From: Gammaproteobacteria bacterium
Lineage (GTDB): Bacteria; Pseudomonadota; Gammaproteobacteria; UWMA-0217
Assembly (NCBI GenBank): GCA_027081275.1
Contig: JALWKV010000152.1
Location: forward strand, 6,820-70,819
Length of the DNA stretch: 64,000 bases
Reading direction: 5' to 3'
The notes below the pieces were generated by a model that saw nothing but the letters and a program-made list of their open reading frames with translations, searched no databases and was not told the DNA's origin. This document shows positions 11,975 through 58,719 of this stretch, one piece after another. The translations under genes and the position numbers were made by a program. Positions within the stretch are counted from its first letter, which is position 1. Every line of letters begins with the position of its first letter.

Positions 11975-11981
11975 CCAACCC

Positions 11982-12074
11982 TAGCCGGCATTTCTCACCA
12001 CCCTTCTTCTGCGACGTTCCAATGGCGCGCCCTTGATCCGTCTCGCTACGAACGCTGGTGAGAAATGCCGGCTA
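11982..12074. mobile_element. MITE-1 copy 1: internally deleted (~89 bp) with both terminal inverted repeats intact, flanked by TA
   Basis: TA|gccggcatttctcaccaccc…ggtgagaaatgccggc|TA. The ends match the full-length copies and ~90 bp of the centre is missing. It starts 8 nt after the iscX stop. Confidence 0.6.
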
Positions 12075-12134
12075 GCCGACGGTGCCGCGTTGCAGCCCGG
12101 GCTGCCTGCCAGTAGAATCCGCGAACCTTGCTAA

Positions 12135-20636: not shown

Positions 20637-20694
20637 TAACCCGGATTTCTCACCACCCTTCTACTGCGACGTTCCAATGGCGTGCCCTGGCTGG
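20637..20694. mobile_element. MITE-1 copy 2: truncated, one end only (~56 bp)
   Basis: TA|acccggatttctcaccacccttctactgcgacgttccaatggcgtgccctggctgg, then the similarity is lost. Confidence 0.45.
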
Positions 20695-21786: not shown

Positions 21787-22007
21787 GGCTGGGCTCCGGT
21801 TGTGGGATAACCCCCTCTCCCTTTAGGGAGAGGGCCGGGGAGAGGGTGAATACAGCCGGCTCGCCGGACAGGCTTCGCTCTGCCCGGGCCGCGGGAATGA
21901 ATGCGGAAGGGTATCACGCTGCCGGAATCCGCCGCTATATCGCCGGCGGTCATATCGGGTACACTCCGAAGTCCTCCGTGGCTATTCGATAGGGTGTCGT
22001 TCGCACG

Positions 22008-26328: not shown

Positions 26329-27887
26329 GCGTTCTCCCTGATGGTATCGGCAATGGCGTCGGCATCGACCGGCTTGCCGGTATCGACCTCGATCTCGCGT
26401 AGCCCGTCGGGTACCGGCTCGATGTGATCGAGCTGATGGCGCAGTACGTCGATTCCGGCGTCGGAGATGTTGTCGGCCTCATTGGCGCGGTCTCGCAGCC
26501 GTTGTTCGAGAATCTCGCGATCTGCTGTGGTGGTGACGACGGTCAGCGGAATGTTGCTGGCGGCGGCCAGCTCGGCAAAGGGCGCGATCTGCGACTGCTT
26601 GAGGAAGGTGGCATCGACGATGACGGGATAGCCGGCGGCCGTGAGCCGGTCGGTGAGATCGAGCAGGCGGGCATAGGTTTTTTCGGTCAGCTCGGGGGCG
26701 TAGAGGCCGGCGTTCAGCTCGCCGCTGTTCTCGGTCTGATCGGCGAACAGCCGCTTGCGCTCGCGGTCGGAGCGGACGCGAAAGGCGCCGAGGCTTTCCA
26801 GCAGTTGCTGCCCCAGCGTCGATTTGCCGCTGGCCGAGACGCCGCGCATCAGCACGATGGCGGGGCTCTGCCGGCGGGTGAAGCGTTCGGCCAGATCGCT
26901 GTAGCTCTGGTAGGCGGCGGTGACCTGCTTGCGTTCTTCGTCGGACAGCTTCTGCGCCAGCCGGAAGCCGGCGATCTTGGCCCGCACCAGCGCGCGATAG
27001 ACCTGGTAGAAGCGCAACAGCCGCAGCCCTTCGTAGTCGCCGGTGTTCTCGATGTAGCGGTTCATCAGTCGCTGCGCCATGCCGGGCTGGTCGCGGTCGC
27101 TCAGGTCCATCGTCAGAAAGGCCATTTCGCTGATGACGTCGATCCAGCGGAAGGCGTCGTTGAACTCGATGCCGTCGAAGATCACCACCTCGCCATCGAC
27201 CAGCGTGATATTGCCGAGATGCATGTCGCCGTGGCATTCACGGATGAAGCCGCCGGCCTTGCGTTCGGCCAGCAGCGCCTCGAGCTTGCGGTATTCCGCC
27301 TCGGACCAGGCCTCCAGCCGGTCGAGCTGATCGAGCTGGGCGTCATCGCTCAGCAGCGGTCGGATCTGCTCGAAGTTCTGCGCCACCGGCGCCCAGACCG
27401 ACTCGGGGCTGCCGAGCGGCGTTTCGTCGCCGGCGACGGCGGCGCGGGCGTGGAAGTCGGCAACGATGTCGGCGATCGAGTCGATGATGTCGTTGCCGAC
27501 CTTGCCGGCGGCCAGCAGCTTGTCGAGCAGCTGGCTCTGGTCGAAGCGGCGCATCTTCACCGCGTAGTCGATGACCTCGCTGTCGCCGCCGATGCGGGGC
27601 GCGTCGAGGCTGCCGGTGATCGCCACGGTGTCGAGGTAGATCTGTGGCGCCAGCCGGCGGTTGAGGCGGATCTCCTCTTCGCAGAAGTGCTTGCGGTCGG
27701 CGAGCGCGAGGAAGTTGAGGAAGCCGAAGTCGAGCGGCTTCTTGATCTTGTAGGCATAGTCACCGGCCAGCAGCACCGACGAGATATGCGTCTCGAGCAC
27801 CTCGATGTCGTCGGCCGGATGGAGAAAGGGTTTCTGCTCCTTCAGCGCCTTGACCAGCTGCGTGTGTTGTTCGAGATTGATTTCCAT
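26325..27887 (-). CDS. Bifunctional aminoglycoside-phosphotransferase-like kinase / AAA-family (P-loop) ATP-binding protein
   Basis: The N-terminal half has a kinase fold (HGDMHLGNI…D…). The C-terminal half is a P-loop domain (GVSASGKST). Confidence 0.75.
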   Translation of the reverse strand: MEINLEQHTQLVKALKEQKPFLHPADDIEVLETHISSVLLAGDYAYKIKKPLDFGFLNFLALADRKHFCEEEIRLNRRLAPQIYLDTVAITGSLDAPRIGGDSEVIDYAVKMRRFDQSQLLDKLLAAGKVGNDIIDSIADIVADFHARAAVAGDETPLGSPESVWAPVAQNFEQIRPLLSDDAQLDQLDRLEAWSEAEYRKLEALLAERKAGGFIRECHGDMHLGNITLVDGEVVIFDGIEFNDAFRWIDVISEMAFLTMDLSDRDQPGMAQRLMNRYIENTGDYEGLRLLRFYQVYRALVRAKIAGFRLAQKLSDEERKQVTAAYQSYSDLAERFTRRQSPAIVLMRGVSASGKSTLGQQLLESLGAFRVRSDRERKRLFADQTENSGELNAGLYAPELTEKTYARLLDLTDRLTAAGYPVIVDATFLKQSQIAPFAELAAASNIPLTVVTTTADREILEQRLRDRANEADNISDAGIDVLRHQLDHIEPVPDGLREIEVDTGKPVDADAIADTIRENA

Positions 27888-28074
27888 TATATTTCGCTTC
27901 CCCGTTGGTCGAGATCGCCGCGGCCGGCGGCGTGTCCTCTGTCAGATGATTGTGGATTGGCCCGTGCTTCGGTCAGTCCGATCCGGGCGGCCCATTGGCC
28001 GGCAATGATAGACTAGCGACACTGTCCCCTCAAAAAACACCGAGTCAGTTTCCCCCAACCCTGCTGAACCTCCC

Positions 28075-30465: not shown

Positions 30466-31094
30466 CGAGAATTCCCGCGGCGGCGCTGCTGCTGGCCGCC
30501 GCGCTGCTGGGCGGCTGCGCCGGCGGCCCGACGCAGACCCGCATCCCCCGCCCGGGGCCGGTTGTGGCGCCGCAGCCGCAACCGACCAGCCCGCCCGCCG
30601 AGGCGGAGCCGGAGGTTCAGACCATGCCGCTCGAACGCGGCGAGGTGCCACGCCCGCAGGCCCTGCCGCAACCCGAGCCGATGTATCCGCCCGAGCCGTT
30701 GCCGGAACAGCCTCCGGAAGGAGCGCCCACGGCTGTCGAAACCGTGCCGCTGTCGGACAACCCGGTCGTCGTCAGCCTGCTGGAGCAGGCCGACGGTTTC
30801 GCCGCCAGCGGCCAGCTCGACCGCGCCGCCGCCAGCGTCGAGCGGGGGCTGCGCATCGCGCCGAAGGATGCGTCGCTGTGGCAGAAACTGGCGCGGATCC
30901 GGCTGGAGCAGGGACGCTACCACCAGGCCGAATCGCTGGCGAAGAAATCCATCGCGCTGGCCCGCGGCCGTCCCGGCATGATTGCCGACAACTGGAAGAT
31001 CATCGCCGAGGCGCGCCGCGCCGCCGGTGACGAAGCGGGCGCCCGCCGCGCGCTGGAGAAGATGCTGCAATACTCCGGCGGGATGACTCGCTAG
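30447..31094 (+). CDS. lpoP: LpoP-like lipoprotein (candidate PBP1B activator): lipobox, Pro-rich linker, TPR-like C-terminal domain
   Basis: LLGGCAGG lipobox, then a PQPQPT/PEP-rich disordered stretch and a helical TPR-like domain. It overlaps the 3' end of mrcB by 19 nt, as LpoP does with ponB in Pseudomonas. Confidence 0.55.
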   Translation: MGNASVTRIPAAALLLAAALLGGCAGGPTQTRIPRPGPVVAPQPQPTSPPAEAEPEVQTMPLERGEVPRPQALPQPEPMYPPEPLPEQPPEGAPTAVETVPLSDNPVVVSLLEQADGFAASGQLDRAAASVERGLRIAPKDASLWQKLARIRLEQGRYHQAESLAKKSIALARGRPGMIADNWKIIAEARRAAGDEAGARRALEKMLQYSGGMTR

Positions 31095-31139
31095 GAGGCT
31101 GTCCGACTTAACCGTTTGAAGCGAAAATTCGTGGGAGAT

Positions 31140-31163
31140 GTAGGGTGCATTCCATGCACCGAC
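31140..31163. repeat. REP-like palindromic unit (family C)
   Basis: gtagggtgcattccatgcaccgac is identical to the unit at 2229-2252. Confidence 0.4.
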
Positions 31164-31214
31164 TGCGTCAGCGGATATATCCAATAATCAATAACTTGCG
31201 ATAGCCTCCGAGAC

Positions 31215-31490
31215 TCAGCGCTCGAAAGAATCGTAGTGACCGCCAATGGCGAAAATGTAGATATGCGTGTCGTCGAACTTGTAAATGAGCCGGTCCTTTT
31301 GACTGAGTCGTCTCGACCAGAAACCGGTAAGGTTGTGTCGAAGCGCTTCGGGCTTTCCCAGGCCGGAAGTCGGGTCGCCGCGCAACATCTCTTTCAATAT
31401 CGCGCAAAGATTCTTGTGCAACCGCTTGTCCCGCTGCCGCAGGTTTTCATACACCTCCCATGTCCTTCCCTCAAACACCAGTGATCTCAT
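31215..31490 (-). CDS. yoeB: YoeB/Txe-family toxin
   Basis: …GLGKPEALRHNLTGFWSRRLSQKDRLIYKF… matches E. coli YoeB almost residue for residue. Confidence 0.85.
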   Translation of the reverse strand: MRSLVFEGRTWEVYENLRQRDKRLHKNLCAILKEMLRGDPTSGLGKPEALRHNLTGFWSRRLSQKDRLIYKFDDTHIYIFAIGGHYDSFER

Positions 31491-31743
31491 CCAACTGCTC
31501 TTTGCTGGGGGTGTATCCGCCGCCGGCGCTATGGGTGGCGCTGGATTCGGCGATCTGGCGCATCAGTGAGCTATTCTGGAGCACGTACAAGGTTTCCTGG
31601 TCGCGCTCCCAGTCCTCCGCGCTGACCACGACGAAATCCGCTCCCCGGCGGCGGGTGACGCGAAGCGGCAAGTGCTGGTTGACCACCTGGTCAACGAAGC
31701 TTTTCAGGCTCTCTCGGAATTTGTTAACGGTTGTGGTATCCAT
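31471..31743 (-). CDS. yefM: YefM/Phd-family antitoxin
   Basis: MDTTTVNKFRESLKSFVDQVVNQHLPLRVTRRRGADFVVVSAEDWE… It overlaps the yoeB start by 20 nt. Confidence 0.8.
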   Translation of the reverse strand: MDTTTVNKFRESLKSFVDQVVNQHLPLRVTRRRGADFVVVSAEDWERDQETLYVLQNSSLMRQIAESSATHSAGGGYTPSKEQLDEITGV

Positions 31744-33834: not shown

Positions 33835-34320
33835 TCAGACGCCCTTGCGGCGAATCTTCGTCAGCAGATCCAGCGAAATTCTGTAGCCGTTGGCTCTCAT
33901 CGTTTCGATGGCCGCCTCCGCGCTGGGCAGGCGGCCCTTTTTCTCGGCCAGAGCCAGCAGACGAGCGGTGCCGATAAAATCGATCCTGTACTTACGCGCC
34001 TGCTTTCTTGCCAGCCTGTCGTCCATGATGAGCAGCGGCGTCTCGTAGCGCAGCGCCAGGCCTGTTGCCTGCTTCTCGCCCTCACCGAGACTGCGGGGCA
34101 GGGGTGGGAAGTCTTCCGCGGCGATGCTCTCGACGACCAGCACCGACGACGCAATGGCCTGCGTGATTTTCCGCGCATCCGCATTGTCCTTTGCGGTGCA
34201 CTCATGCTGGACTGCTGGCGGCAGGTGAACTCTGCCGAACAGCTGCTGTAGCAGATTCAGCAGATCAGCCTTGGCAAGCGCGATCAGCGGCACGGCGTCG
34301 GCTATGACGACTGGAGCCAT
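33835..34320 (-). CDS. DUF3368 / PIN-like domain protein (putative toxin of a UPF0175-DUF3368 pair)
   Basis: COG2405-type sequence. It overlaps the upstream UPF0175 gene by 19 nt. Confidence 0.6.
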   Translation of the reverse strand: MAPVVIADAVPLIALAKADLLNLLQQLFGRVHLPPAVQHECTAKDNADARKITQAIASSVLVVESIAAEDFPPLPRSLGEGEKQATGLALRYETPLLIMDDRLARKQARKYRIDFIGTARLLALAEKKGRLPSAEAAIETMRANGYRISLDLLTKIRRKGV

Positions 34321-34643
34321 GTGTCGAGATCCGTCGTTTCCTCTTCGGTGGTTTCGTCCTTGCGGACGACGTCGATATCGAGGCTGGCGAGGTGTTCGAC
34401 GAATTCGCTCAGCGACAGTCCGCTCAGCTTGGCGGCTGCGCCCAGAGACATCACGCCATCACGGTAGAGCACCGATGCCAGTGCCGGGCGGAGGCTTTCC
34501 TCGGTTTCCGACAGCGTCTTCTCCAGGTGCAACAGGACGGCGTCCGGCTCATTCCCTTTCAGAATCAGCACGGGTTCCTCGCGGGCGTGGCGCAATGCGA
34601 GCGACGGATTTTTCTTCAGGTTGCGGACATTTGTGGCGAACAT
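34302..34643 (-). CDS. UPF0175-family protein (putative antitoxin partner)
   Basis: …LLHLEKTLSETEESLRPALASVLYRDGVMSLGAAAKLSGLSLSEFVEHLASLDIDV…. Confidence 0.6.
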   Translation of the reverse strand: MFATNVRNLKKNPSLALRHAREEPVLILKGNEPDAVLLHLEKTLSETEESLRPALASVLYRDGVMSLGAAAKLSGLSLSEFVEHLASLDIDVVRKDETTEEETTDLDTWLQSS

Positions 34644-35475: not shown

Positions 35476-35686
35476 GGCGGATCAAGGAGCACTGCGACGG
35501 ATCCGCCGGAACGAACCTGCCCAAGGCGTGATGTGGTTGGCGGTAAATGGCGTTACTGGCGTGTGCCGGGTTGGATAGGGCGTGGTGTGCTAAACAGGAC
35601 GGTGGGGTTGATGCGTTAGGTGTGACTTTGTGGCAGAGCCCAATGCCGGATCCGCTGCGCTTGATCCGGCCTACGGTGCTGGTTCG

Positions 35687-35923
35687 TCAATTACACTCGG
35701 CCCTTGCCGTCTCCAGCTCCCGGGCAAGGCCCGCCCACAGGGAAGATCGATACTGGCCCAGCGCTTCGACATCGGAACGCGGTACCTTGCGAAGAATGAC
35801 GTGATCACCCTCCACTTCGAGCTCCAACCGGTCACCGGGCTCGATGCCGAGTTGCCGACGGATCTTTGCCGGCAAGACGAGCTGAGACTTCTTGCTGAGT
35901 GTCGATATGGCCATGAGGATCAA
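35687..35923 (-). CDS. AbrB/MazE/SpoVT-family antitoxin-like DNA-binding protein (orphan)
   Basis: …SQLVLPAKIRRQLGIEPGDRLELEVEGDHVILRKV… is a swapped-hairpin domain. No toxin ORF is recognisable in the 200 bp downstream. Confidence 0.6.
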   Translation of the reverse strand: MILMAISTLSKKSQLVLPAKIRRQLGIEPGDRLELEVEGDHVILRKVPRSDVEALGQYRSSLWAGLARELETARAECN

Positions 35924-36108
35924 CCAGTTTGCTTTACCTCTATGTAAGGCAGTTAGGTTTGCATTGCAAGCTGACGCCTTTCAGATGCGCTGACTGAAAT
36001 CACCCCACTCCCGCCCTTATCCCCAGTCGGCGCATGGTTCTTGCCGTTGCTGATTTCGTCTATAGTCACGCTTTGCGATCACACCGAATGGACAAGAGGA
36101 GACAATAA

Positions 36109-36606
36109 ATGGCCACCATCACGCTGGAAGGCAACGAAATCCACACCAATGGCGATCTGCCCGAGATCGGCGCCAGCGCGCCCGACTTCAAGCTGACGAC
36201 GAAGGATCTGAACGATGTCTCGCTGGCCGACTTCGCCGGCAAGAAGAAGCTGCTCAATATCGTGCCGAGCCTCGACACCGGCATCTGCGCCATGTCGACG
36301 AAGAAGTTCAACGACGCAGCCAGGGGGCGGGACGATGTGGTGTTCCTCACCATCTCTTCCGATCTGCCGTTTGCTCAGGGCCGTTTCTGCGAGGCGGAGC
36401 ACATCGACGCCGTGCAGACGCTGTCGATGATGCGCGACAAGAACTTCGCCAAGGACTACGGCGTGCTGATCACCGACGGGCCGCTGGCCGGCATCACGGC
36501 GCGCGCCGTGGTGGTGCTCGATGCCGGCAACAAGGTGGTCTACACCGAGCTGGTGCCGGAAATCGTACAGGAGCCGGACTACGACAAGGCGCTCGCCGCG
36601 CTCTGA
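36109..36606 (+). CDS. tpx: Thiol peroxidase (atypical 2-Cys peroxiredoxin)
   Basis: …[15 protein letters not shown]…. Confidence 0.9.
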
Positions 36607-37387
36607 CGCCGCTGGTCGAGCTGCTGTCGCTGGGCGAGGCGTTTCTCGATGTCAGCGACTCGCCGCACTGTAACGGCAGCGCCATGCTCATCGCCGCCGA
36701 GATTCGTCGCCACATCCGCGAACAGGAAGGGTTGACGGCCTCGGCTGGCATCGCGCCCAACAAATTTCTCGCCAAGGTCGCTTACGACTGGAACAAGCCC
36801 GACGGTCAGAAGGTGGTGCGGCCGGAGGAGGTCGATGCCTTCGTCGGCGCGCTGTCGGTGGAGCGCATTTTCGGTGTTGGCAAGGTGACGGCGCGGAAAC
36901 TGCATGCAATGGGCATCGCCACCTGCACCGATCTGCAGCACTGGCCCATCGAGGAGCTGGAGGCCCGCTTTGGCCGCTTCGGCAGGCGCCTTCATGAACT
37001 CAGTCGCGGCATCGAGATCGGCCCGTCAAGCCCGTGCGGCGACGCAAGTCGCTCAGCGTCGAGGATACCTTCGCACGTGATCTGCCCGGCGTCGCCGCCT
37101 GCGATGCCGAGCTCGTCATGCTTCATGCCGAGCTGCTGCGACGGCTGGAAAGATTGTCGGGCGGGCAGGACGGCCGGATCGCCTCGCTTTGTCTTAAGCT
37201 CCGCTTCGATGATTTCACCGCGACCACCGCGCAGATGCCGGGCTTCGAACCCGAACTGGCGCATTACCGCGAACTGCTGCGCAAGGCCTGGTCGCGCGGC
37301 AGGCGTCCGGAGCGACTGGTCGGCGTCGGCGTTCGTTTCGGCTGCGGTGATCGTTTGCGCCAGCTCCCGCTGGATTTGTCCGCGTAG
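36607..37387 (+). pseudogene. dinB: DNA polymerase IV (dinB) remnant: N-terminal ~95 codons missing, 1-bp frameshift near 37020
   Basis: The translation starts directly after the tpx stop as PLVELLSLGEAFLDVSDSPHCNGSAMLIAAEIRRHI…ASAGIAPNKFLAKVAYDWNKPDGQ. This aligns from about residue 95 of DinB. The downstream homology RRRKSLSVEDTFARD… continues in another frame. Confidence 0.75.
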
Positions 37388-37410
37388 CTGTCGTGCGGTC
37401 TGGAAATGAA

Positions 37411-37818
37411 TCAGGCCCGACAATGTCTCCCACGTGGATCGAAGGGGTCGAGCATGTTCCTGCAAAACCACCGTGCGAGCGAACCCCGCCAGCTGTCGTC
37501 GTCGAGCCATCGGCTGCAGCGGTTGGTAAACAGCCACTCGCGAGGCAGTTCGACAAAAAACAGGGTTCCGAAAATTGCATTGAAAAGCATGTCGAGAGGA
37601 TATCCGACGGCCAGTACGCTATACGCCCAGAAGCGGGAAAAGGGCGTCAGCTTGTTTCTGTTGCGCGCGAGGTTCATTACGGCCAGGTAGTGAACCCAGG
37701 TGACCTGGAGTAGCGCATAGAGGTGAATCACGATCATGACAGGCCATGCGTTGTGCCAAAGATCGAGATAGTTTCGCCATATGTTTGACAAGGCATGAAT
37801 GGCGTTGCTGATGTTCAT
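37411..37818 (-). CDS. Hypothetical Trp-rich small protein (probable membrane protein) in a low-GC pocket
   Basis: 135-aa ORF with GC well below the local average. I could not assign a family. Confidence 0.45.
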   Translation of the reverse strand: MNISNAIHALSNIWRNYLDLWHNAWPVMIVIHLYALLQVTWVHYLAVMNLARNRNKLTPFSRFWAYSVLAVGYPLDMLFNAIFGTLFFVELPREWLFTNRCSRWLDDDSWRGSLARWFCRNMLDPFDPRGRHCRA

Positions 37819-37851
37819 GTGTGATCCGGGGATGTCATTCGTAATTTCCGG

Positions 37852-37938
37852 CGTAACTACCCAGCGCCGCAGCCCGCTGCCGCGCGCCCATGCATGAAAG
37901 TAACGGCGTTACCACGAAGCACCGTTGCTGAACCCCTC
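37852..37938. repeat. Repeat family A copy A3 (5' part only; interrupted by MITE copy 3)
   Basis: ggcgtaactacccagcgcc…ggcgttaccacgaagcaccgttgctgaacccctc, then the MITE begins at the TA. Confidence 0.45.
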
Positions 37939-38120
37939 TAGCCCGAATTTCTCACCAACGTTCGTAGCGAGACGGCACAAGGGTGCGGCATGGGTGACTT
38001 TTGCGACCGAGGAGCGCGCAGGCATAGCCGGCACTATATCGAGCACTCCGACCAAGCGAAAGCCACCCAGGGCGTGCCATTGGGCCGTCGCAGTAGAAGG
38101 ATGGCGAGAAATGCGGGCTA
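37939..38120. mobile_element. MITE-1 copy 3 (full length, 178 bp plus TA flanks)
   Basis: TA|gcccgaatttctcaccaacgttcgtagcgagacgg…ccgtcgcagtagaaggatggcgagaaatgcgggc|TA. It has terminal inverted repeats and a long internal palindrome. Confidence 0.7.
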
Positions 38121-38134
38121 GATTCCCTTTGGAA

Positions 38135-38305
38135 GAGGTTGTCGCAAAAGTGATAACTTTGCGGCAACCTCACGCAGCACAAGGATGTGTTGCCAGAAAC
38201 AACGACAATAAGTCGTTATTTCTGTGAGAAAAGGAAAAATCGCACTTTTTCCTTTTCGTGTGTCGCAAAATCCTGGAGGGACTTTTGCGACACCTTCTGG
38301 AAGAG
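38135..38305. repeat. Repeat family B copy B1: array of four consecutive perfect hairpins
   Basis: The stems are ttgtcgcaaaagt/aactttgcggcaa, agaaacaacgac/gtcgttatttct, gaaaaggaaaaa/tttttccttttc and gtgtcgcaaaa/ttttgcgacac. It is ~90% identical to 58078-58250. Confidence 0.5.
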
Positions 38306-38496
38306 GGTATCGCAAAACGCTCTCCCACGAGGGAGAAGGCGTTGGGAGGCCGGTTCAAGCGCAGCTGAACCGGCAGCAGTGTTGCCACGAAGTCGCGCCG
38401 TTGCCCGATCCGCTACGGCTTGATCGGGCCTACTTCTTCTTGCGATAACCTCAAGGGGGAGGGGGCCATACCCTCTTTTCAGGCGGGTTGTCGCTG

Positions 38497-38955
38497 TCAG
38501 GCGGCATGCGTCTGATACTTCTCCTTCATCTCACGCGCCTTGCGCGCCTCTTCCGGCGAGTAGGCCCGGCCCTGCCACAGCATGGTGTAGGCCGTCTCCT
38601 CGTTGCCGTTCTCGCACAGCGCCAGCACATCCCTGAACAGCGGCTGGAAGCTATCGCTCTTGTGTGAAGCCTCGTGCTCCTCGAAGGAGTTCCAGAAGGT
38701 GATGATCAGCGCCTCGCGATCCTTCAGCTCGGTATCGACGGCGCGACCGGCAGTGGAGCCCTCGTTGGAGATCTGGCCGCTGTTCAGGGCGACGAAGCCG
38801 CCAATGAAGCCGGTGTCGGAATGATAGGTCTTGACGTTTTCGCAGAGCAAGGCGACCCGCTCTTGCAGATCGTCGATCGTGTATTCCGGCTTCAGAATGA
38901 CCCGGTTGACGGTGACGACCCCGTTGGGATTGAAGTTGGGAATCAGATTGTTCAT
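38497..38955 (-). CDS. Hypothetical protein with a C-terminal ABM-like (Dabb) monooxygenase-type motif
   Basis: …LIITFWNSFEEHEASHKSDSFQ… resembles the ABM-domain signature. An AT-rich divergent promoter region lies upstream. Confidence 0.45.
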   Translation of the reverse strand: MNNLIPNFNPNGVVTVNRVILKPEYTIDDLQERVALLCENVKTYHSDTGFIGGFVALNSGQISNEGSTAGRAVDTELKDREALIITFWNSFEEHEASHKSDSFQPLFRDVLALCENGNEETAYTMLWQGRAYSPEEARKAREMKEKYQTHAA

Positions 38956-39128
38956 CGCTGTTACCTCTCTGTTGATCCAGAATATCGGTATGTACTGATA
39001 ATTATTGTTGACCATATTACTCGGTAATGATCGCGAGTAAATAAACCCTGTAAATATAGATATAAATATAATTGATTGGATGGGTTTCGAGTTGAGATGT
39101 GCGCAGCTTGCTGGAATACTGTGACCCC

Positions 39129-39755
39129 ATGAGTGAATTGAAATACCTCTTCGACAAGAATCGCGCCTGGGCCGAGAGCATCACTGCCCGGGATCCCGAC
39201 TTCTTCCAGCGTCTTTCGCAGCAGCAGGCGCCGGACTATCTCTGGATCGGCTGTTCCGACAGCCGTGTCCCGGCCAACCAGATCGTCGACCTGCCGCCGG
39301 GTGAAGTCTTCGTTCACCGCAATATCGCCAATGTCGTCGTCCATACCGACCTCAACTGCCTCTCGGTGCTGCAGTTCGCCGTCGATGTTCTTCGCGTCAA
39401 GCACATCATCGTCTGTGGCCACTATGGCTGCGGTGGGGTGAAGGCGGCGCTGGAGAACAGCGAACACGGCCTGATCGACAACTGGTTGCGGCACATCAAG
39501 GACGTCATCCGCTTCAATGCCGATCAGTTCGATGGCCTCAGTCACGCGGAAAAGCTGGATCGGCTCTGCGAACTCAACGTCAAGGAGCAGGTCATCAACA
39601 TCAGCAACACCACCATCGTCCAGAATGCCTGGAAACGTGGCGACGACCTGACGGTGCATGGCTGGATCTACAACATCGAGAACGGCATCCTGCGCGACCT
39701 GGCCCACTATGATCCCGAGGAGGCGCCTTTCCGGGATCCCGTTCCCAAGCCGTAA
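39129..39755 (+). CDS. can: Beta-class carbonic anhydrase
   Basis: …WIGCSDSRVP…HYGCGGV…. Confidence 0.9.
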   Translation: MSELKYLFDKNRAWAESITARDPDFFQRLSQQQAPDYLWIGCSDSRVPANQIVDLPPGEVFVHRNIANVVVHTDLNCLSVLQFAVDVLRVKHIIVCGHYGCGGVKAALENSEHGLIDNWLRHIKDVIRFNADQFDGLSHAEKLDRLCELNVKEQVINISNTTIVQNAWKRGDDLTVHGWIYNIENGILRDLAHYDPEEAPFRDPVPKP

Positions 39756-39763
39756 CGAGATCC

Positions 39764-40897
39764 CTAGCGATCCCCGAAACAGACTCCGACCCGCCGCGCG
39801 CTTTCGATCCACGGGTGGTCTGGCGGCACCAGTTTCTTGTTGCCGGCGACCTGTTCCAGTGGAACCGGTTCCGTGCTGTCGCCGCGGGCCGCGACCATGA
39901 CGCCCGAAAGCCCGTCGTCGATGTATTCGGCGCAGGCTGTGCCGAGCCGGGTGGCGAGCAGGCGGTCGCCGGCCGACGGGGTGCCGCCTCGTTGCAGGTG
40001 GCCGAGTATCGTGGGGCGTGACTCCAGCCCGGTCATCTGCTCCAGCCGGTGCGCCAGTTTCATCGTGTGGCCGACGTAATCCGCTTCCAGCGCCTTCAGT
40101 TCGGCCTTGATTTCTTTGCGCTGTTTCTTGTCTTCGCTGGCTTCCGCGTTGGCCAGCGCGGCTTCCAGCCGCGCGCGGGTGGCGGCCTGCTCGGTATCGA
40201 CGGCGCCTTCGGCAACGGCGACGATGCTGAAGTTCTTGCCGTTCTTGACGCGATGGCTGATGGCGTCGGCGATGGCCTCGAAGGAGTAGGGGATCTCAGG
40301 CAGCAGGATCACGTCGGCGCCGCCGGCGATCCCGGAGCCGAGCGCGAGCCATCCGGAGCGGTGCCCCATGATCTCGACCACGATGATGCGATGGTGACTG
40401 TGGGCGGTGCTGTGGAGGCGGTCGATGGCGCCAGTGGCGATGCCGAGCGCGGTGTCGAAACCGAAGGTGGTGTCGGTCATGCCGACGTCGTTGTCGATCG
40501 TCTTCGGCAGCGTGATGACGTTGAGCCCCTTCTGCGCCAGTTGCAGCGCGTTCTTCTGCGTGCCGCCGCCACCGAGACAGACCAGCATGTCGAGGTGGTT
40601 GCGATGGTAGTTCTCGACGATCAGATCGGTCATGTCCTGCGTTTTGCCGGCGATCTTCATCTTGTGCGGCTTGTCCCGGCTGGTGCCGAGGATCGTCCCG
40701 CCGATGGTGAGAATGCCGGACAGCACGCTGCCGCCGAGATCGACGCTGCGGTTTTCCACCAGCCCACGGAAGCCGTCGCGAAAGCCGATGACGCGCATGC
40801 CGAAGGCTTCCTGCGCGGCCTTGCCGACGCCGCGAATGGCGGCATTGAGTCCGGGGCTGTCGCCGCCGGCGGTGAGGATCCCGATGCGCTTGGTCAT
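39764..40897 (-). CDS. pfk: 6-phosphofructokinase (ATP- or PPi-dependent)
   Basis: [24 protein letters not shown]…MGHRSGWLA… The ORF extends N-terminally, but the conserved start is at 40897. Confidence 0.85.
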
Positions 40898-41057: not shown

Positions 41058-41262
41058 TAGTTACAGGGTAACTACTCAGCGCCCCGCCCGCTGCCGCGCC
41101 CCCATACATAGAAGTAGCGGCGTCACCACGAAGCACCGTTGCAATCCCCCTTTGGGGGCTGAGGCCTCCCTCTTGGCGAAGGGAGGTTTGGAGGGATGAA
41201 GGCTTCGGTGGTGGAGTCGGCAGTAGGTCTTGTCACGTATCGGTATTAAGTTACTTGGAAGC
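41058..41262. repeat. Repeat family A copy A2
   Basis: About 85% identical to 605-835. Confidence 0.5.
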
Positions 41263-46350: not shown

Positions 46351-46908
46351 GCGGTAGTTATTGACGATACGCTGAACGCCCTCTTTGAAGGTGGCTGCGC
46401 CGAAATTGATGAGTAGACCCACCGGAAGATTCATCAAACGAAGATAAGTGAGCACCTGCTTTGGGTGGACGGCAGTCATTTTTTCCACGGACTTTAATTC
46501 CACGATGATGCGGTTTTCCACCAACAGATCCAGGCGCCACCCTTCTTCAAAACGCATCCCGTCATATTCGAATGCCACGACCTTCTGTCTTTCGACTTTC
46601 AGGCCACGTCTAGCCCGCATTTCTCACCACCCTTCTACTGCGACGTTCCAATGGCACGCCCTGGCTGGCTTTCGCTCGGTCGGAGTGCTCGACATAGTGT
46701 CGGCTATGCCTGCGCGCTCCTCGGTCGCGAAAGCCACCCATGCCGCACCCTTGATCCGTCTCGCTACGGACGGTGGTGAGAAATGCGGGCTAGCCAAATC
46801 CCGGTAGAGTACAGCTTCATAGACAGACTCCAGAAGACCGGGGCCAAGGCCGGCATGCAGTCTGTAAGCCGTATCCACGATCATCCCGGTAATATCATCG
46901 ATTTCCAC
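46213..46908 (-). pseudogene. GxxExxY-family (PD-(D/E)XK-like) gene split by MITE-1 copy 4; the 3' end runs into the D repeats
   Basis: N-terminal piece MEIDDITGMIVDTAYRLHAGLGPGLLESVYEAVLYRDLA and C-terminal piece RRGLKVERQKVVAFEYDGMRFEEGWRLDLLVENRIIVELKSVEKM…LLINFGAATFKEGVQRIVNNY. Removing the 178-bp element and one TA restores a continuous frame …LYRDLARRGLKVERQ…. Confidence 0.7.
46611..46792. mobile_element. MITE-1 copy 4 (full length, opposite orientation), inserted in the GxxExxY gene
   Basis: TA|gcccgcatttctcaccacccttctactgcgacgttccaatgg…cggtggtgagaaatgcgggc|TA. Confidence 0.7.
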
Positions 46909-51454: not shown

Positions 51455-51625
51455 TCTCACCACAGTTCGTAGCGAGACGGATCAAGGGTGCGGCATGGGT
51501 GGTTTTCGCGACCGAGGAGCGCGCAGGCATAGCCGACACTATGTCGAGCACTCCGACCGAGCGAAAGCCAGCCAGGGCGCGCCATTGGAACGTCGCAGTA
51601 GGAGGGTGGTGAGCAATCCGGGCTA
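51446..51625. mobile_element. MITE-1 copy 5 (left end slightly diverged) wedged between two convergent genes
   Basis: aa|gccctgatctcaccacagttcgtagcgagacgg…ggtgagcaatccgggc|TA. The left end contains the TGA of the + gene. The right TA is part of the TAG of the - gene. Confidence 0.6.
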
Positions 51626-54277
51626 GTGACGGCTCGATGCCGTCGCGCCGATATCGGGCTTGCGATCTTCCGGCTTGCCGAGCGGAGCCATCGCGCCGAT
51701 GAGGCCGGCGGGAAGGCCGGGGAGACTGCTGATCAGGCTCATCGCCACCGATGCTGCGTAGGGGATCGCCTGCACCAGCAGCATCACCACCCAGATGCGG
51801 ATGTCCGGCATCGCGAAGCCGTGGACCATCCACAGGCCCCAGGCGCCGGTCAGCATGGCGATCAGCAGCAGCAGTTCTTCGCGAGCATGGTTGAGCGCCT
51901 GCAGAAAAGCCGAATGGCTGGCCATTTTCGGGGTGCGGAAAAAACCGAGCTTGCTGTTGGTAAAGCCCGTTATCACGGCGCGCGAGATGCCGTGGGCCAG
52001 CGCCAGCCCGGCGATGGCGGCGCCGATGCTCTGGCGCAGGTTGGCGCGCACCTTGAGCTGGTAGAGAAAGGTCAGTTTGATGATTTTGAAGGCGAACAGC
52101 GCCAGCGGAAACAGCGCGAACATCATCAGCGGCGGATCGAAGCGCTCGGGCAGCACGATCATGCCGACGGTCCAGGCCAGCGCGGTGAGGTTGATGATCA
52201 GGCTGAGGCCGTCTGAGACCCAGGGCAGCCAGCCGGCGATGAAATGATAGCGCTGACCGCGCGTCAGTTGCGTCGGCTTCAGTCCCGTCAGTTCGCCGAA
52301 GTGGCGGCGCATGATCATCATCGCGCCATAGGCCCAGCGGAAACGCTGCTTCTTGAAGTCGAGAAAGTTGTCCGGAATCAGTCCGCGACCATAACTGACG
52401 GGAACGTACTGCGCCTTGTAGCCGTGCTCGAACACGCGCAGCCCCAGCTCGGCATCCTCGGTGATGCACCATTCGCTCCAGCCGCCGACCTCCTGCAGCA
52501 CCGACTTGCGGATCATCGTCATCGTGCCGTGCTGGATGATGGCGTTGCGTTCGTTGCGTGTCACCATGCCGATCTGGAAGAAGCCGCGATACTCGGCGTG
52601 GCACATGGCCTTGAACAGGTTTTCGCCGCCGTCGCGATAGTCCTGCGGCGCCTGCATGATCGCCAGTTCCGGATCGTCGGCGAAGGCCGCCGCCAGATCC
52701 CTGAGCCAGTCGCGCTCGACAATGTAGTCGCTGTCGATCACGGCGACGACGCTGGCGCGCGGGTCGGTCTGCGCCAGCGCCACGTTCATGGCGCCGGCCT
52801 TGAAGCCCGCCAGCTTTTCGTAGTGGAAGAAGCGGAAGCGCGGCCCGAGCTTTTCACAGTGGTCGCGCACCGGCTGCCACAGTGCCGGATCGGTGGTGTT
52901 GTTGTCGATCAGCACCACCTCGAAGCGGGGGTAGTCGAGCGCCGCCAGCGCGTTCAGCGTCTGCTTCAGCATCTCGGGCGGCTCGCTGTAGGCCGGGATG
53001 TGCACCGAGACGAAGGGCAGCGCATCGTCGGCGAGCCGTGGCGGCGCGTAGGCGCGGCGCGTCTTGCCGATCCACAGCGCCTCGGCCCACTCGTGGGCTT
53101 CGGCCAGCAGCACCATGATCAGCCCCAGCACCGCCAGCAGCATGACCAGGCCGAGCACGATGCTGCTCCAGGTCAGGTATTGCGCGGTATAGCGGTAGAT
53201 GAGCCAGACCGTGGCCGTGACGGCGGCAAAGGTAACGATGGCGAGAAAGCCGCGACCGACCGAATTGAGGTTGTGGTCGCTGCGCAGCATCGGCCCGAGC
53301 ACCAGCACGGCGAAAACGACCGAGATCGCGGCCAACAGCCGCCACTGTGGAATCTCGACCACCGGCGCGGTGAACGAGAACTTGGGATTGCGCTCAACGT
53401 CGTAGAGCCCCCAGTAGGCGCCGGCGCCGCCTTCCGTTTTGGTCTTCCATGGCTGGTCGAAGGCTTCGATGATGAAGTAGTCCCAGCCCTCGTTCTCCGC
53501 CAGCGCGAGGAAGCGCTTGAGAAACATCGCCTCGTTGCTCAGTGACGGCACCGCGCCCTCGCGCTGACGCCCGTTGCTGGGCCAGCCCACCTCGCCGATG
53601 ACGATCGGCTTGCCCGGATAGGCGGCCTGCAGCTCGCGATAGCGTTGCAGCAGATAGGGCACGGCGGCGTCGGCCGGCAGCCCCTCCCAATAGGGCAGCA
53701 GGTGGACGGCGATGAAATCGACGCGCTGGACCAGCTCGGGATGCTTCAGCCAGATGTGCCACGGTTCCGCCGTGCTCACCGGCATCGGCAGCGAGCGGCG
53801 CACGCGGTCCAGATAGGTCGCCAGCCGGTCGACAGTCAGCGTATTCGTCAGTAGCGTCTCGTTGCCGATGATGACGCGGTCGACCGTGTCCCAGTTCTCG
53901 CGCGCCGCGCCGATCAGCCGCTTCAGCTCCACCGTGTCCTCGGAGACATTGCCGGTCAGATGGGCGCCTAGCGTCACCTTCATGCCGTGCGCCTTGGCCA
54001 GACGCGGGATCTGCACCAGATCGGCCTTGACGGTATAGGTGCGGATGTTCTCGACCTCCCCGTTCAGCAAGGCGAGATCCTCGTCGATCTGCGCGGTGGT
54101 GGGATAGCGGTTCTTCGCCGGGTCATGCTCGGCGCGCAGAGGCGAGAAGGAAACGCCCTGCAGCGTATGCGGCCAGGCGGGATCGTTGTCGCCCGGGTGG
54201 TTGAACGCTGCCCAACCGAGAACCGTCAAGGTCGCAACGATGAGATAGAGCAACAGATTAGATAAGGGGATCTTCAC
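51623..54277 (-). CDS. ndvB: NdvB-like fusion protein: N-terminal GH17-like glycoside hydrolase/transglycosylase plus C-terminal GT2 processive glycosyltransferase (candidate cyclic beta-1,3-glucan synthase). GTG at 54277 or TTG at 54298.
   Basis: N-terminal TM anchor, a GH17-like domain (…VIIGNETLL…IGEVGWPSNG…), multiple TM helices, and GT2 motifs IDSDY (DxD) and QRFRWAYG (QxxRW). This is the same architecture as P. aeruginosa NdvB. Confidence 0.7.
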   Translation of the reverse strand: MKIPLSNLLLYLIVATLTVLGWAAFNHPGDNDPAWPHTLQGVSFSPLRAEHDPAKNRYPTTAQIDEDLALLNGEVENIRTYTVKADLVQIPRLAKAHGMKVTLGAHLTGNVSEDTVELKRLIGAARENWDTVDRVIIGNETLLTNTLTVDRLATYLDRVRRSLPMPVSTAEPWHIWLKHPELVQRVDFIAVHLLPYWEGLPADAAVPYLLQRYRELQAAYPGKPIVIGEVGWPSNGRQREGAVPSLSNEAMFLKRFLALAENEGWDYFIIEAFDQPWKTKTEGGAGAYWGLYDVERNPKFSFTAPVVEIPQWRLLAAISVVFAVLVLGPMLRSDHNLNSVGRGFLAIVTFAAVTATVWLIYRYTAQYLTWSSIVLGLVMLLAVLGLIMVLLAEAHEWAEALWIGKTRRAYAPPRLADDALPFVSVHIPAYSEPPEMLKQTLNALAALDYPRFEVVLIDNNTTDPALWQPVRDHCEKLGPRFRFFHYEKLAGFKAGAMNVALAQTDPRASVVAVIDSDYIVERDWLRDLAAAFADDPELAIMQAPQDYRDGGENLFKAMCHAEYRGFFQIGMVTRNERNAIIQHGTMTMIRKSVLQEVGGWSEWCITEDAELGLRVFEHGYKAQYVPVSYGRGLIPDNFLDFKKQRFRWAYGAMMIMRRHFGELTGLKPTQLTRGQRYHFIAGWLPWVSDGLSLIINLTALAWTVGMIVLPERFDPPLMMFALFPLALFAFKIIKLTFLYQLKVRANLRQSIGAAIAGLALAHGISRAVITGFTNSKLGFFRTPKMASHSAFLQALNHAREELLLLIAMLTGAWGLWMVHGFAMPDIRIWVVMLLVQAIPYAASVAMSLISSLPGLPAGLIGAMAPLGKPEDRKPDIGATASSRH

Positions 54278-55927: not shown

Positions 55928-58078
55928 ATGATCGAGAACTCCATGGAGAGTCAATCACGGGCAGCGGCGGCAAGCGGTGGCGTGTTTCACCGCAGCTGCT
56001 GCCGCCCGCTCGCCGGCAAGCCACGCATTGGCGCCGCGCTCGGCGCGCTGCTGGCCGGTTTCGGTGGCGTGGTGGATGCCGCTGAAATGGCCACCGACGG
56101 CGAGGAAGCCTTCCTCGCCGACATCCCCATCGTCATGTCGGCCACGAGGCTGCCGCAGCCGCTGCTGGAATCGCCGGTCTCGACCACGGTCATCACCCGC
56201 GAGATGATCGAGGATTCCGGCTTCAACCAGCTTGCCGACGTATTCCGGCTCGTGCCCGGCTTTCAGGTCGCCCACGCCACCGGCGGACACTTCGTCGTCG
56301 CCTACCATGGCCAGGAATTCACGCTGGCCTCCCGGCTCGAGGTGCTGATCGACGGCCGTTCCGTCTACGGCAACATCCTCTCCAGCGTGCAGTGGAACAC
56401 GCTGGGCGTCGCGCTGGAGGACATCGAGCGGATCGAGGTGATCCGCGGGCCGAACGCGCCGGTGTTCGGCGCCAACGCCATGGTGGCCACCATCAATATC
56501 ATCACCCGACAGCCCTACGCCGAGTCGGGAACCTGGATCGACGCCACCGCCGGCTCGATCGGCACCCGCGACCTGCTGCTGCGCCATGCCGCAACCGCCG
56601 GCGCGCTGGATTACCGCCTCAGCCTGGGCTGGAAGCAGAATGACGGCTTCGACGTGGCCCCTGGAATGGGGCCGGATTTCGACGATACGCGTCTTGGCAG
56701 CCTCACCTTTCGCGGCGCCTGGTCGCCCTCCAGCATCGACGATGTCGATATCCAGTTCGGCTACACCGGCGGCGAATCCGCGACGCTGGAGCCGAAGCCC
56801 GATGCATTGCAGACCGACCACGATGGCGATGCCAGATCCCATTACCAGTTCATCCGCTGGACGCGGTCGCGGTCGATGGATGATGAACTCCACCTGCAGT
56901 TCTATCACAACTACAACGACCAGCACGATGGTTCCGAGCTGGGGCCGATTTCGGCGTATATCGGCATATTGCCGGCACAGGTGCCCCTTGCCATCGGCGG
57001 CCGGCCGGATCAGTCGATCGCGGTCTACTACGGCGAGGGGACCTCGGAGCGCTACGATCTCGAATTGCAGCGGCGTCTGCGCATGTCCGATTCCCTGCGG
57101 ATGGTCTGGGGCACGGGATTCCGCCTCGACCGGCTGCGCAGCAAGCCGCATCTGAACCGGGACGGCTTCGTCGACAACCCGTCGGCGCGGATGTTCGGCA
57201 ACGCGGAGTGGTCGCTGAGCGACGACCTCTCCCTCCACCTCGGCGCCATGGTGGAGCACAACGACGTGGCGGGGCCGTTCGGCTCGGCGCGAATCGCCGC
57301 CAACTGGCGCCTCGCGCGCGATCAGGCGGTGCGTGCCAGCATCAGCTCGACCCAGCGCAGTCCGTCGATCATTGAACAGGAGTGGGACTTCCTGCTGCGC
57401 TTCAATGACGGCGCGCCGCTGAACCAGATCTTCTACTCGCCCGGCGATCTCGATCCGGAACGGCTCGTGGCCGTGGAGCTCGGCTACGCCTACATCCCGG
57501 TGGACGGACATCTGCAGTTCGATGCCAAGGTCTTTCGCGAGCGGGCGACCGACATCATCTCCAACTACCGCGATCTCGATTTTCCCGACCCGTTTCTCCA
57601 GGATGGCGTCGAGATCAACATGAATGACGACAGCTATCGCGTCAGCGGCGTGGAGGGCGCGCTGCGCTGGCGGTCGGGGCCACACGACCTGCTCACGTTC
57701 CAGTATTCGCTGACGAAAAGCCACCGTGATCTCTACCGCGGCGGCGATGATGAACCAATACGCATCGAGCACACCGCCACGCCCCGGCGGACATGCAGCC
57801 TGCTGTACACGCACCATTTTCCCGCCGATGTCAGCGCCAGCCTCGGTTACTACTACCGTTCCGCCGTCAAGTGGATCGGCGATGGCGACAAGACGGACGG
57901 CCACAAACGAGTCGATCTGCGGATCGGGAAAACATTCTCGAGCAAGCGGCTGGAGGGCAATATCGACCTGATCGTGCAGAACATCGGGGAGGACTATCAG
58001 GAATACATCAGCGAAAAAGAGAAACGAACGACGTTCAAGACGCGCTATTTCGTCAGGGCCGGCCTCCATTTCCAGTAG
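55928..58078 (+). CDS. TonB-dependent receptor (plug plus 22-strand barrel)
   Basis: Signal-like N-terminus, a plug motif region, and a C-terminal …RAGLHFQ with terminal aromatic residues. Confidence 0.85.
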   Translation: MIENSMESQSRAAAASGGVFHRSCCRPLAGKPRIGAALGALLAGFGGVVDAAEMATDGEEAFLADIPIVMSATRLPQPLLESPVSTTVITREMIEDSGFNQLADVFRLVPGFQVAHATGGHFVVAYHGQEFTLASRLEVLIDGRSVYGNILSSVQWNTLGVALEDIERIEVIRGPNAPVFGANAMVATINIITRQPYAESGTWIDATAGSIGTRDLLLRHAATAGALDYRLSLGWKQNDGFDVAPGMGPDFDDTRLGSLTFRGAWSPSSIDDVDIQFGYTGGESATLEPKPDALQTDHDGDARSHYQFIRWTRSRSMDDELHLQFYHNYNDQHDGSELGPISAYIGILPAQVPLAIGGRPDQSIAVYYGEGTSERYDLELQRRLRMSDSLRMVWGTGFRLDRLRSKPHLNRDGFVDNPSARMFGNAEWSLSDDLSLHLGAMVEHNDVAGPFGSARIAANWRLARDQAVRASISSTQRSPSIIEQEWDFLLRFNDGAPLNQIFYSPGDLDPERLVAVELGYAYIPVDGHLQFDAKVFRERATDIISNYRDLDFPDPFLQDGVEINMNDDSYRVSGVEGALRWRSGPHDLLTFQYSLTKSHRDLYRGGDDEPIRIEHTATPRRTCSLLYTHHFPADVSASLGYYYRSAVKWIGDGDKTDGHKRVDLRIGKTFSSKRLEGNIDLIVQNIGEDYQEYISEKEKRTTFKTRYFVRAGLHFQ

Positions 58079-58250
58079 AGGTTGCCGCAAGAGCGATTAC
58101 TTTGCGACACCCTCGCGCAGCACAAGGATGTGCTGCCAGAAACAACGACGACAAGTCGTTGTTTCTGTGAGAAAAGGAAAAATCGCACTTTTTCCTTTTC
58201 GTGTGTCGCAAAGTCCTGGACGGACTTTTGCGACACCCTCCAGTAAAGGG
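58078..58250. repeat. Repeat family B copy B2 (array of four hairpins), beginning at the TonB-dependent receptor stop codon
   Basis: gaggttgccgcaagagcgattactttgcgacacc…agaaacaacgacgacaagtcgttgtttct…gaaaaggaaaaatcgcactttttccttttc…gtgtcgcaaagtcctggacggacttttgcgacac. Confidence 0.5.
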
Positions 58251-58280
58251 CGGCAACTGGCGCGACTCGAACCGGTCGAC

Positions 58281-58462
58281 TAGCCCGGATTTCTCACCAC
58301 CGTTCGTAGCGAGACGGATCAAGGGTGCGGCATGGGTGGCTTTCGCGACCGAGGAGCGCGCAGGCATAGCCGACACTATGTCGAGCACTCCGACCGAGCG
58401 AAAGCCAGCCAGGGCGTGCCATTGGGACGTCGCAGTAGAAGGGTGGTGAGAAATCCGGGCTA
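58281..58462. mobile_element. MITE-1 copy 6 (full length)
   Basis: TA|gcccggatttctcaccaccgttcgtagcgagacgg…ggtggtgagaaatccgggc|TA. Confidence 0.7.
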
Positions 58463-58719
58463 GTGGTAAAGACAATATATCAATAGTTGCAAGAGTAGCT
58501 GCGTTCCTGGCGGTGCATATAAATGCATCTTTGGACCAGAGGGTGCGTTCTACGTACCGTCTGGGCCTGCGGGAATATCTGCAACCCCTATATCAACATG
58601 GGACGCATGCGTACGTGTATCGCGGACCGCATATTGAAAGTGGTGGGACTGATGAGCAGTACAGGGAAGCAGGAAGACATACCGGATAGCGCAATCGACA
58701 TGAAATCCTAGAGACGCGC

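Follow-up and report, generated by a model that had tools for sequence, protein, structure and literature searches.

DNA polymerase IV (Pol IV; NF002677, Pfam IMS, IMS_HHH and IMS_C) is the closest described counterpart of the locus considered here. In Escherichia coli the enzyme is composed of a palm (residues 1-10 and 74-165), fingers (11-73), a thumb (166-240) and a little finger (243-351). Its catalytic centre is formed by D8, D103 and E104, a D103N variant is without polymerase activity, and its clamp-cleft motif is 346-QLVLGL-351 (PMC4564189). The DinB/YfiT superfamily covered by another review (PMC6300522), which we set aside, is unrelated to Pol IV. The stretch of DNA analysed here (64,000 nucleotides from a contig of a Gammaproteobacteria bacterium, hereafter the window) carries at positions 36606-37387 the 3' 73% of dinB, the gene of Pol IV. 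This region resembles Pol IV in its orthology over E. coli residues 97-351 and in its syntenic position, and a thumb, a little finger and a clamp-binding-like C-terminus are recognisable in it. Unlike a functional Pol IV gene, it lacks codons 1-95 and a promoter, has glycine in the place of D103, and its frame is broken at the junction of thumb and little finger. We interpret it with considerable confidence as a non-functional dinB remnant at its ancestral position, which was left by a deletion between short repeats and subsequently drifted.

Bacterial pseudogenes formed by deletion between short direct repeats provide the second comparison. The locus shares with them an imperfect repeat of 9-10 bp, secondary lesions and intact orthologues in sister lineages, and it displays nothing unusual for such pseudogenes; worth noting are the removal of two further genes and the stop of the deletion exactly at the tpx stop codon. 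Such decay is ordinary, a textbook case of short-repeat deletion followed by drift.

Identity and extent of the dinB remnant

The whole 64-kb window was searched by tblastn with the E. coli DinB sequence. Two collinear segments were returned (joint E 1e-48): one pairs residues 97-230 with 36615-37016 (frame +3, 58% identity), the other pairs residues 231-351 with 37016-37378 (frame +2). Residues 1-96 found no homology anywhere in the window, and the same search of the 64 kb revealed neither a second Y-family gene nor an intact dinB paralogue. After repair of the frame, the remnant matches NCBIfam NF002677 (DNA polymerase IV, equivalog) with 286.7 bits (E 2.5e-85; cut-off 256 bits), limited to model positions 98-342 of 357. 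Pfam recognises IMS_HHH and IMS_C, and of IMS the C-terminal end alone (profile 89-147 of 148). These tblastn, NF002677 and Pfam results place the homology, the absence of the 5' part and the change of frame far beyond chance. The first-pass annotation had described a dinB pseudogene without its 5' part, with homology from the tpx stop onwards and a 1-bp frameshift, and this description agrees with the tblastn search using a full DinB (two collinear segments, switch from frame +3 to +2), with NF002677 and with the alignment of orthologues.

The homology to dinB begins at 36606, the A of the tpx TGA and thus the last base of that stop codon (Table 1). Downstream of the frameshift, the remnant retains a C-terminal clamp-binding-like motif, QLPLDL, at 37361-37378, and it ends with a TAG stop at 37385-37387. 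The upstream neighbour tpx is of full length: it matches the thiol-peroxidase equivalog NF001808 over positions 1-165 of 167 (237.9 bits; cut-off 123) and Pfam Redoxin with E 6.9e-32, and its length and C-terminus (…DYDKALAAL) recur in 10 of the 11 other sequences in the same 90% cluster. A tpx-DinB fusion or a product of stop-codon read-through was also considered and is ruled out by the frames, which differ (tpx +1, remnant +3 and +2).

Table 1. Positions of the dinB remnant, its lesions and its neighbours within the window
Feature	Position	Strand	Remarks
Orphan MazE/AbrB-type antitoxin gene	35687..35923	-	Pfam MazE_antitoxin E 2.7e-12; left neighbour of tpx
tpx (thiol peroxidase)	36109..36606	+	intact, 165 aa
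Deletion scar ACGCCGCTGG	36606..36615	+	retained copy of the imperfect short direct repeat; junction of tpx with dinB codon 96
dinB remnant, part 1	36606..37015	+	frame +3; codons 96 to ~232 (P0001 numbering); distal palm and thumb; Pfam IMS, IMS_HHH and IMS_HHH_1; ~91% nucleotide identity to L001, L171 and L173
Catalytic Asp to Gly, codon GGC	36633..36635	+	equivalent of E. coli D103; SLDEA to SLGEA
1-bp deletion	37015..37016	+	third base of an Asp codon gone; frame +3 to +2
dinB remnant, part 2	37016..37387	+	frame +2; little-finger domain; Pfam IMS_C E 2.6e-10
135-aa gene	37411..37818	-	intact, convergent with dinB; right-hand syntenic anchor
Repeat-rich non-coding filler	37849..38475	.	627 bp where the closest relatives have DUF1800 and DUF1501

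Gene order in relatives and the deletion junction

Intact orthologues of the remnant are present in related populations. A protein search returned full-length DinB proteins of 354-355 aa with 91% (P0001), 83% (P0002) and 82% (P0003) identity to the repaired remnant. Five contigs (L171-L175) encode the 355-aa protein P0121, which differs from P0001 in one residue and is likewise 91% identical to the repaired remnant; one of these contigs, L172, bears the label hydrothermal-vent metagenome. Further contig scans of genomes and metagenomes added, among the matches listed, a partial contig (L093) with 100% identity to P0001 and more distant intact orthologues at 76% or less. The alignment of L001-L003, the contigs of P0001-P0003, with the window begins exactly at 36606. 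On L001 and L171-L175 the 355-aa DinB adjoins the same 135-aa gene as in the window, and in all close relatives this gene is the immediate downstream neighbour of dinB.

The arrangement on the other side of dinB is provided by L177, the closest relative at tpx, with 95.2% nucleotide identity over window positions 35680-36615. It carries a PIN toxin gene (-), a region homologous to the antitoxin gene, tpx, DUF188 (-), a DEAD-box helicase gene and the first 129 bp of dinB. L171-type contigs have the helicase gene, dinB, the 135-aa gene (-), DUF1800, DUF1501, a 152-aa gene (-) and carbonic anhydrase. In L004-L006, MAG contigs of more distant origin, tsaB, dinB and the carbonic-anhydrase region have matches to the window, and the gene calls of L004 read tsaB, DUF188, DEAD helicase, dinB, DUF1800, DUF1501, carbonic anhydrase. 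We therefore take this order as ancestral. In the nearest relatives dinB is thus preceded by the PIN toxin (-), a MazE-type antitoxin (-), tpx, DUF188 (-), the DEAD-box helicase and a REP-like element, and followed by the 135-aa gene (-), DUF1800, DUF1501, the 152-aa gene (-) and carbonic anhydrase. This arrangement was rebuilt from short metagenomic contigs of related, non-identical populations, in which L177 joins L172 and L173 through an overlap of 98% identity.

By comparison, approximately 2.4 kb are missing from the window; in the relatives this DNA starts at position 1327 of L177 and extends to the point that corresponds to position 2316 of L172. Gone with it are the hairpin that terminates tpx (-33.5 kcal/mol, z -4.3 in L177), the two genes for DUF188 and the DEAD-box helicase, the REP-like element, and codons 1-95 of dinB together with its promoter. 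No DUF188, DEAD helicase, DUF1800, DUF1501 or PIN toxin gene was found in the window by tblastn. The first-pass annotation had pictured a local replacement of the beginning of dinB by the end of tpx; comparison with L177 joined to L172 and L173 instead indicates a deletion of ~2.4 kb that took out two whole genes, with tpx intact and no fusion.

Copies of a short repeat lie at both ends of the lost stretch: TGAC-CCGCTGG follows tpx in L177, and ACACGCCGCTGG is found at dinB codon 96 in L171, L172, L173 and L001. The junction reads CTCTGAC-CCGCTGGGAAC on the tpx side in L177, AATACACGCCGCTGGTCGAG on the dinB side in L171, L172, L173 and L001, and CTCTGACGCCGCTGGTCGAG in the window, whose sequence at the scar is TGACGCCGCTGGTCGAG. 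The microhomology in L177 is imperfect: the two copies have only AC strictly in common at the crossover, and a 1-nt indel separates it from the CCGCTGG that follows. It is likely that one event of illegitimate recombination or replication slippage removed the ~2.4 kb in the lineage of the window, with the crossover between the imperfect 9-10-bp direct repeat copies (AC-CCGCTGG over the tpx stop, ACGCCGCTGG at dinB codon 96). Because the repeat overlaps the tpx stop codon, such a deletion would end exactly at this codon and leave tpx intact. The remaining 3' part would then have drifted, with the 1-bp deletion at 37015/37016, the change of the second catalytic Asp to Gly and substitutions of other invariant residues. 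We infer both the single step of the deletion and this order of the lesions.

A mosaic or chimeric origin, with tpx seemingly L002-like and dinB L001-like, was considered and rejected: L177 is the closest relative at tpx and joins an L172-type dinB locus, and tpx and the dinB remnant are at similar synonymous distances from L002 (0.34 and 0.41, respectively).

Several observations concern the region upstream of dinB in the relatives. The sequences of L001 and L003 at this place differ from those of the other relatives, and L001 has a glycosyltransferase-like ORF there; the region 5' of dinB appears to be a rearrangement hotspot in the clade. A 53-bp palindromic REP-like element (…CCCTCTCCCTCAAGGGAGAGGGAG…) is found in the window at 21798-21850, and its homologue, with ~87% identity, lies directly 5' of dinB in L001 (443-495), L171 (851-903) and L173 (1501-1553). 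No LexA box of the gamma type (CTGT-N8-ACAG) was found upstream of dinB in L001-L006 or throughout the window.

Secondary lesions in the remnant

The site of the frameshift is evident from a MAFFT alignment, in which the window has GGCATCGA-GATCGG and L001, L002 and L003 have GGCATCGA[T/C]GATCG. The intact genes of L001-L003 encode G-I-D-D-R-P-V across this site, the frame switch seen by tblastn at 37016 matches it, and no homopolymer is present there. An extra g at ~37024-37028, as suggested by the first-pass annotation, restores the frame too; the orthologues L001-L003 place the lost base at 37015/37016. The frameshift separates the thumb from the little finger.

The catalytic centre is affected twice. 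D8, the fingers and the proximal palm were lost with dinB codons 1-95, and the alignment with L001-L003 begins at codon 96. The column equivalent to D103 is Asp in all 120 homologues and in E. coli (GAC or GAT in L001-L003), and the Glu of the catalytic Asp-Glu pair (E. coli E104) is kept in the window. The earlier statement that the palm with its active-site aspartates is absent therefore holds for the D8 equivalent, which is deleted; the D103 codon is present as GGC (Gly), and the part of the palm that corresponds to E. coli residues 95-165 is still encoded. The remnant has neither a start codon nor a promoter of its own, as its 5' end and the upstream region are deleted.

Further substitutions are found along the remnant. 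P101L, D105G and S155Y are specific to the window and lie in columns that are 100% conserved among 120 homologues; columns of 98-99% conservation are hit by P179S and V331E, one of 93% by R131H and one of 80% by F291C. At none of these seven columns is the residue of the window found in any of the 120 homologues. The seven substitutions at residues of 80-100% conservation may point to relaxed constraint. When codon changes are polarised against the outgroups L002 and L003, 12 non-synonymous and 10 synonymous changes fall on the window branch, compared with 6 and 10 on the L001 sister branch, a difference that is not significant on counts alone. Pairwise dN/dS is 0.31 between the window and L001 and 0.18-0.24 among intact genes, and the 12:10 of the window branch corresponds to a ratio of roughly 0.4. 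If a ratio of ~0.2 is assumed for an intact and ~1 for a dead gene, the inactivation would, as a rough estimate, fall within the last quarter or so of the window branch. Taken as a whole, the divergence of the remnant does not exceed that of its neighbours. Judged from its sequence, it appears unable to encode a polymerase, and the locus would make no Pol IV.

Alternative accounts and the surrounding locus

An intact dinB disguised by a chimeric join or a miscalled indel was also considered, as the source is metagenomic and sibling samples hold populations with intact dinB (L002, L003, L173 and L177), so that mis-joins are conceivable. The lesions are nevertheless base-identical in three assemblies. 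One of them, L085 (ENA ERZ23491300 scaffold_573, 50.4 kb), was recovered through exact-sequence look-ups of window proteins; it represents the same locus and is identical to the window over 36000-37900, including the junction and the frameshift. Elsewhere 38 aligned positions differ (34 substitutions and 4 one-base gaps), and a structural difference near 31040-31094 consists of ~155 extra bp in L085 at the 3' end of a TPR-protein gene, and because of these differences we regard L085 as a separate assembly of a near-identical strain. The other, L176, is an independent Logan assembly of the SRA run SRR13622958 (1408 bp) with 100% identity over 36492-37899, which covers both lesions. In addition, the 1-bp deletion lies outside any homopolymer, a deletion of this kind is not expected from a chimera between homologous dinB copies, and the catalytic Asp to Gly change and the six other changes at conserved residues are separate marks of decay. 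An assembly or sequencing error is thus very unlikely, to the point of being hardly credible. An alternative with somewhat more substance, if still unlikely, is a route in two steps, in which DUF188 and the DEAD-box helicase were lost first, resulting in an L002-like order of tpx, a 131-bp spacer and dinB, and a 416-bp deletion of the spacer and dinB codons 1-95 followed, the latter being essentially the local replacement proposed earlier. Such an order of tpx, 131 bp and an intact dinB does exist in the relative L002, the window is collinear with L002 on both sides of the junction, and the absence of L002 1370-1785 would result in the same junction. The L002 locus is like the window in that DUF188 and the DEAD-box helicase are gone and tpx is brought beside dinB. 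It is unlike the window in that dinB is intact: its deletion (L177 1372-3406) begins beyond the tpx terminator and stops ~10 bp short of the dinB start. On both flanks the window is also closer to L177/L172 (nucleotide identity of 95% at tpx and 91% at dinB) than to L002 (91% and 85%), with synonymous divergence at dinB of 0.14 and 0.41, respectively, and the repeat at the junction extends over 9-10 bp, imperfectly, in L177 and over only 1 bp in L002. Since both DUF188 and the DEAD helicase are still present in L177, the simplest explanation of their absence from L002 is an independent loss, and we treat it as such a separate event. We consequently retain the single deletion of ~2.4 kb as the preferred reading.

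The other question is whether the remnant could still be used, either by translation of the little-finger ORF from tpx read-through as a beta-clamp-binding peptide or as a long 3' UTR of tpx. The ORF is open at 37034-37387 (117 aa, GTG start) or 37118-37387 (89 aa), it is called as a gene by two pipelines, and the clamp-binding-like motif QLPLDL is kept. Read-through itself is plausible given that the terminator hairpin of the L177-type tpx was deleted in the window; transcription of tpx probably continues into the remnant, in the direction of the convergent 135-aa gene. A scan for promoters and terminators found no convincing signals around the remnant, and tRNA and Rfam scans of the window returned nothing. 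Inspection of the sequence by eye, however, revealed no Shine-Dalgarno-like motif 5' of either start, at ~61% G+C chance is expected to produce open frames, and the little-finger ORF itself has window-specific changes at conserved residues (F291C, V331E). Retention of the motif is expected if the decay is recent. We therefore consider a remaining use of the remnant very improbable, and the 89-aa and 117-aa ORFs are likely pseudogene fragments rather than genes. Equally far-fetched in our view are an influence of the little-finger ORF on access to the beta clamp and an adaptive, recurrent loss of Pol IV and of the DEAD-box helicase in these vent populations, the latter idea deriving from the independent loss of the same helicase segment in L002.

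With a single deletion and subsequent drift as the preferred history of dinB, the surrounding genes indicate that the decay is not confined to it. In L177 a PIN-domain toxin gene (1-414, -; E 7.8e-17) lies immediately downstream of the antitoxin region. In the window this gene is gone except for ~17 nt, as homology to L177 begins only at 35680. On the other side, L171 2515-5821 has no counterpart in the window, L171 5822-7567 matches 38476-40227, and the filler at this position marks a second deletion at the same locus. Since the PIN toxin, DUF1800 and DUF1501 are also lost within 3 kb, we regard the region as a small patch of deletional decay that is not specific to dinB. The 135-aa gene between the two gaps encodes a protein without Pfam match that is 91% identical to the L171 copy, with a dN/dS of 0.13. 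Its synonymous divergence from L001 is 0.37, compared with 0.14 for the adjacent dinB remnant, and this higher divergence hints at recombination within the locus.

Several further features of the locus and of its assemblies were observed. The repeats of the filler form an interspersed intergenic family of ~85-185 bp, of which the unit 37937-38122 is ~69% self-complementary and MITE- or REP-like. Copies are present at 58077-58463 (58077-58240 and 58280-58463), 46609-46793, 51455-51626, 607-692 and 41068-41142, with more copies at 11981-12075 and 20637-20694, and a repeat copy at 35624-35672 lies at the breakpoint of the PIN-toxin loss. The neighbourhood is rich in toxin-antitoxin modules: within 6 kb upstream, pairs are found at 33835-34643 (-) and ~30975-31500 (-; L085 5107-5635), and the two types of pair are UPF0175 / Phd-like with DUF3368 and Phd/YefM with YoeB. 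The differences between the window and L085 are clustered at 27762-28032, 33895-33946, 38002-38068 and ~31040-31094, and they look like recombination tracts or strain mixtures. In L002, the stretch to compare with L177 1372-3406 is 1416-1490.

An effect of the loss of this polymerase on mutagenesis, which had been suggested earlier, is speculative, the search for translesion polymerases having covered the window. For annotation, the 89-aa and 117-aa ORFs that pipelines call at this locus would best be recorded as pseudogene fragments. The finding has little wider importance; it illustrates clearly how a short repeat can mediate a deletion, and it records the loss of Pol IV at its ancestral locus in an uncultured gammaproteobacterial population of hydrothermal vents, alongside a DEAD-box RNA helicase, DUF188, a PIN toxin, DUF1800 and DUF1501, which are kept in sister populations from sibling samples.
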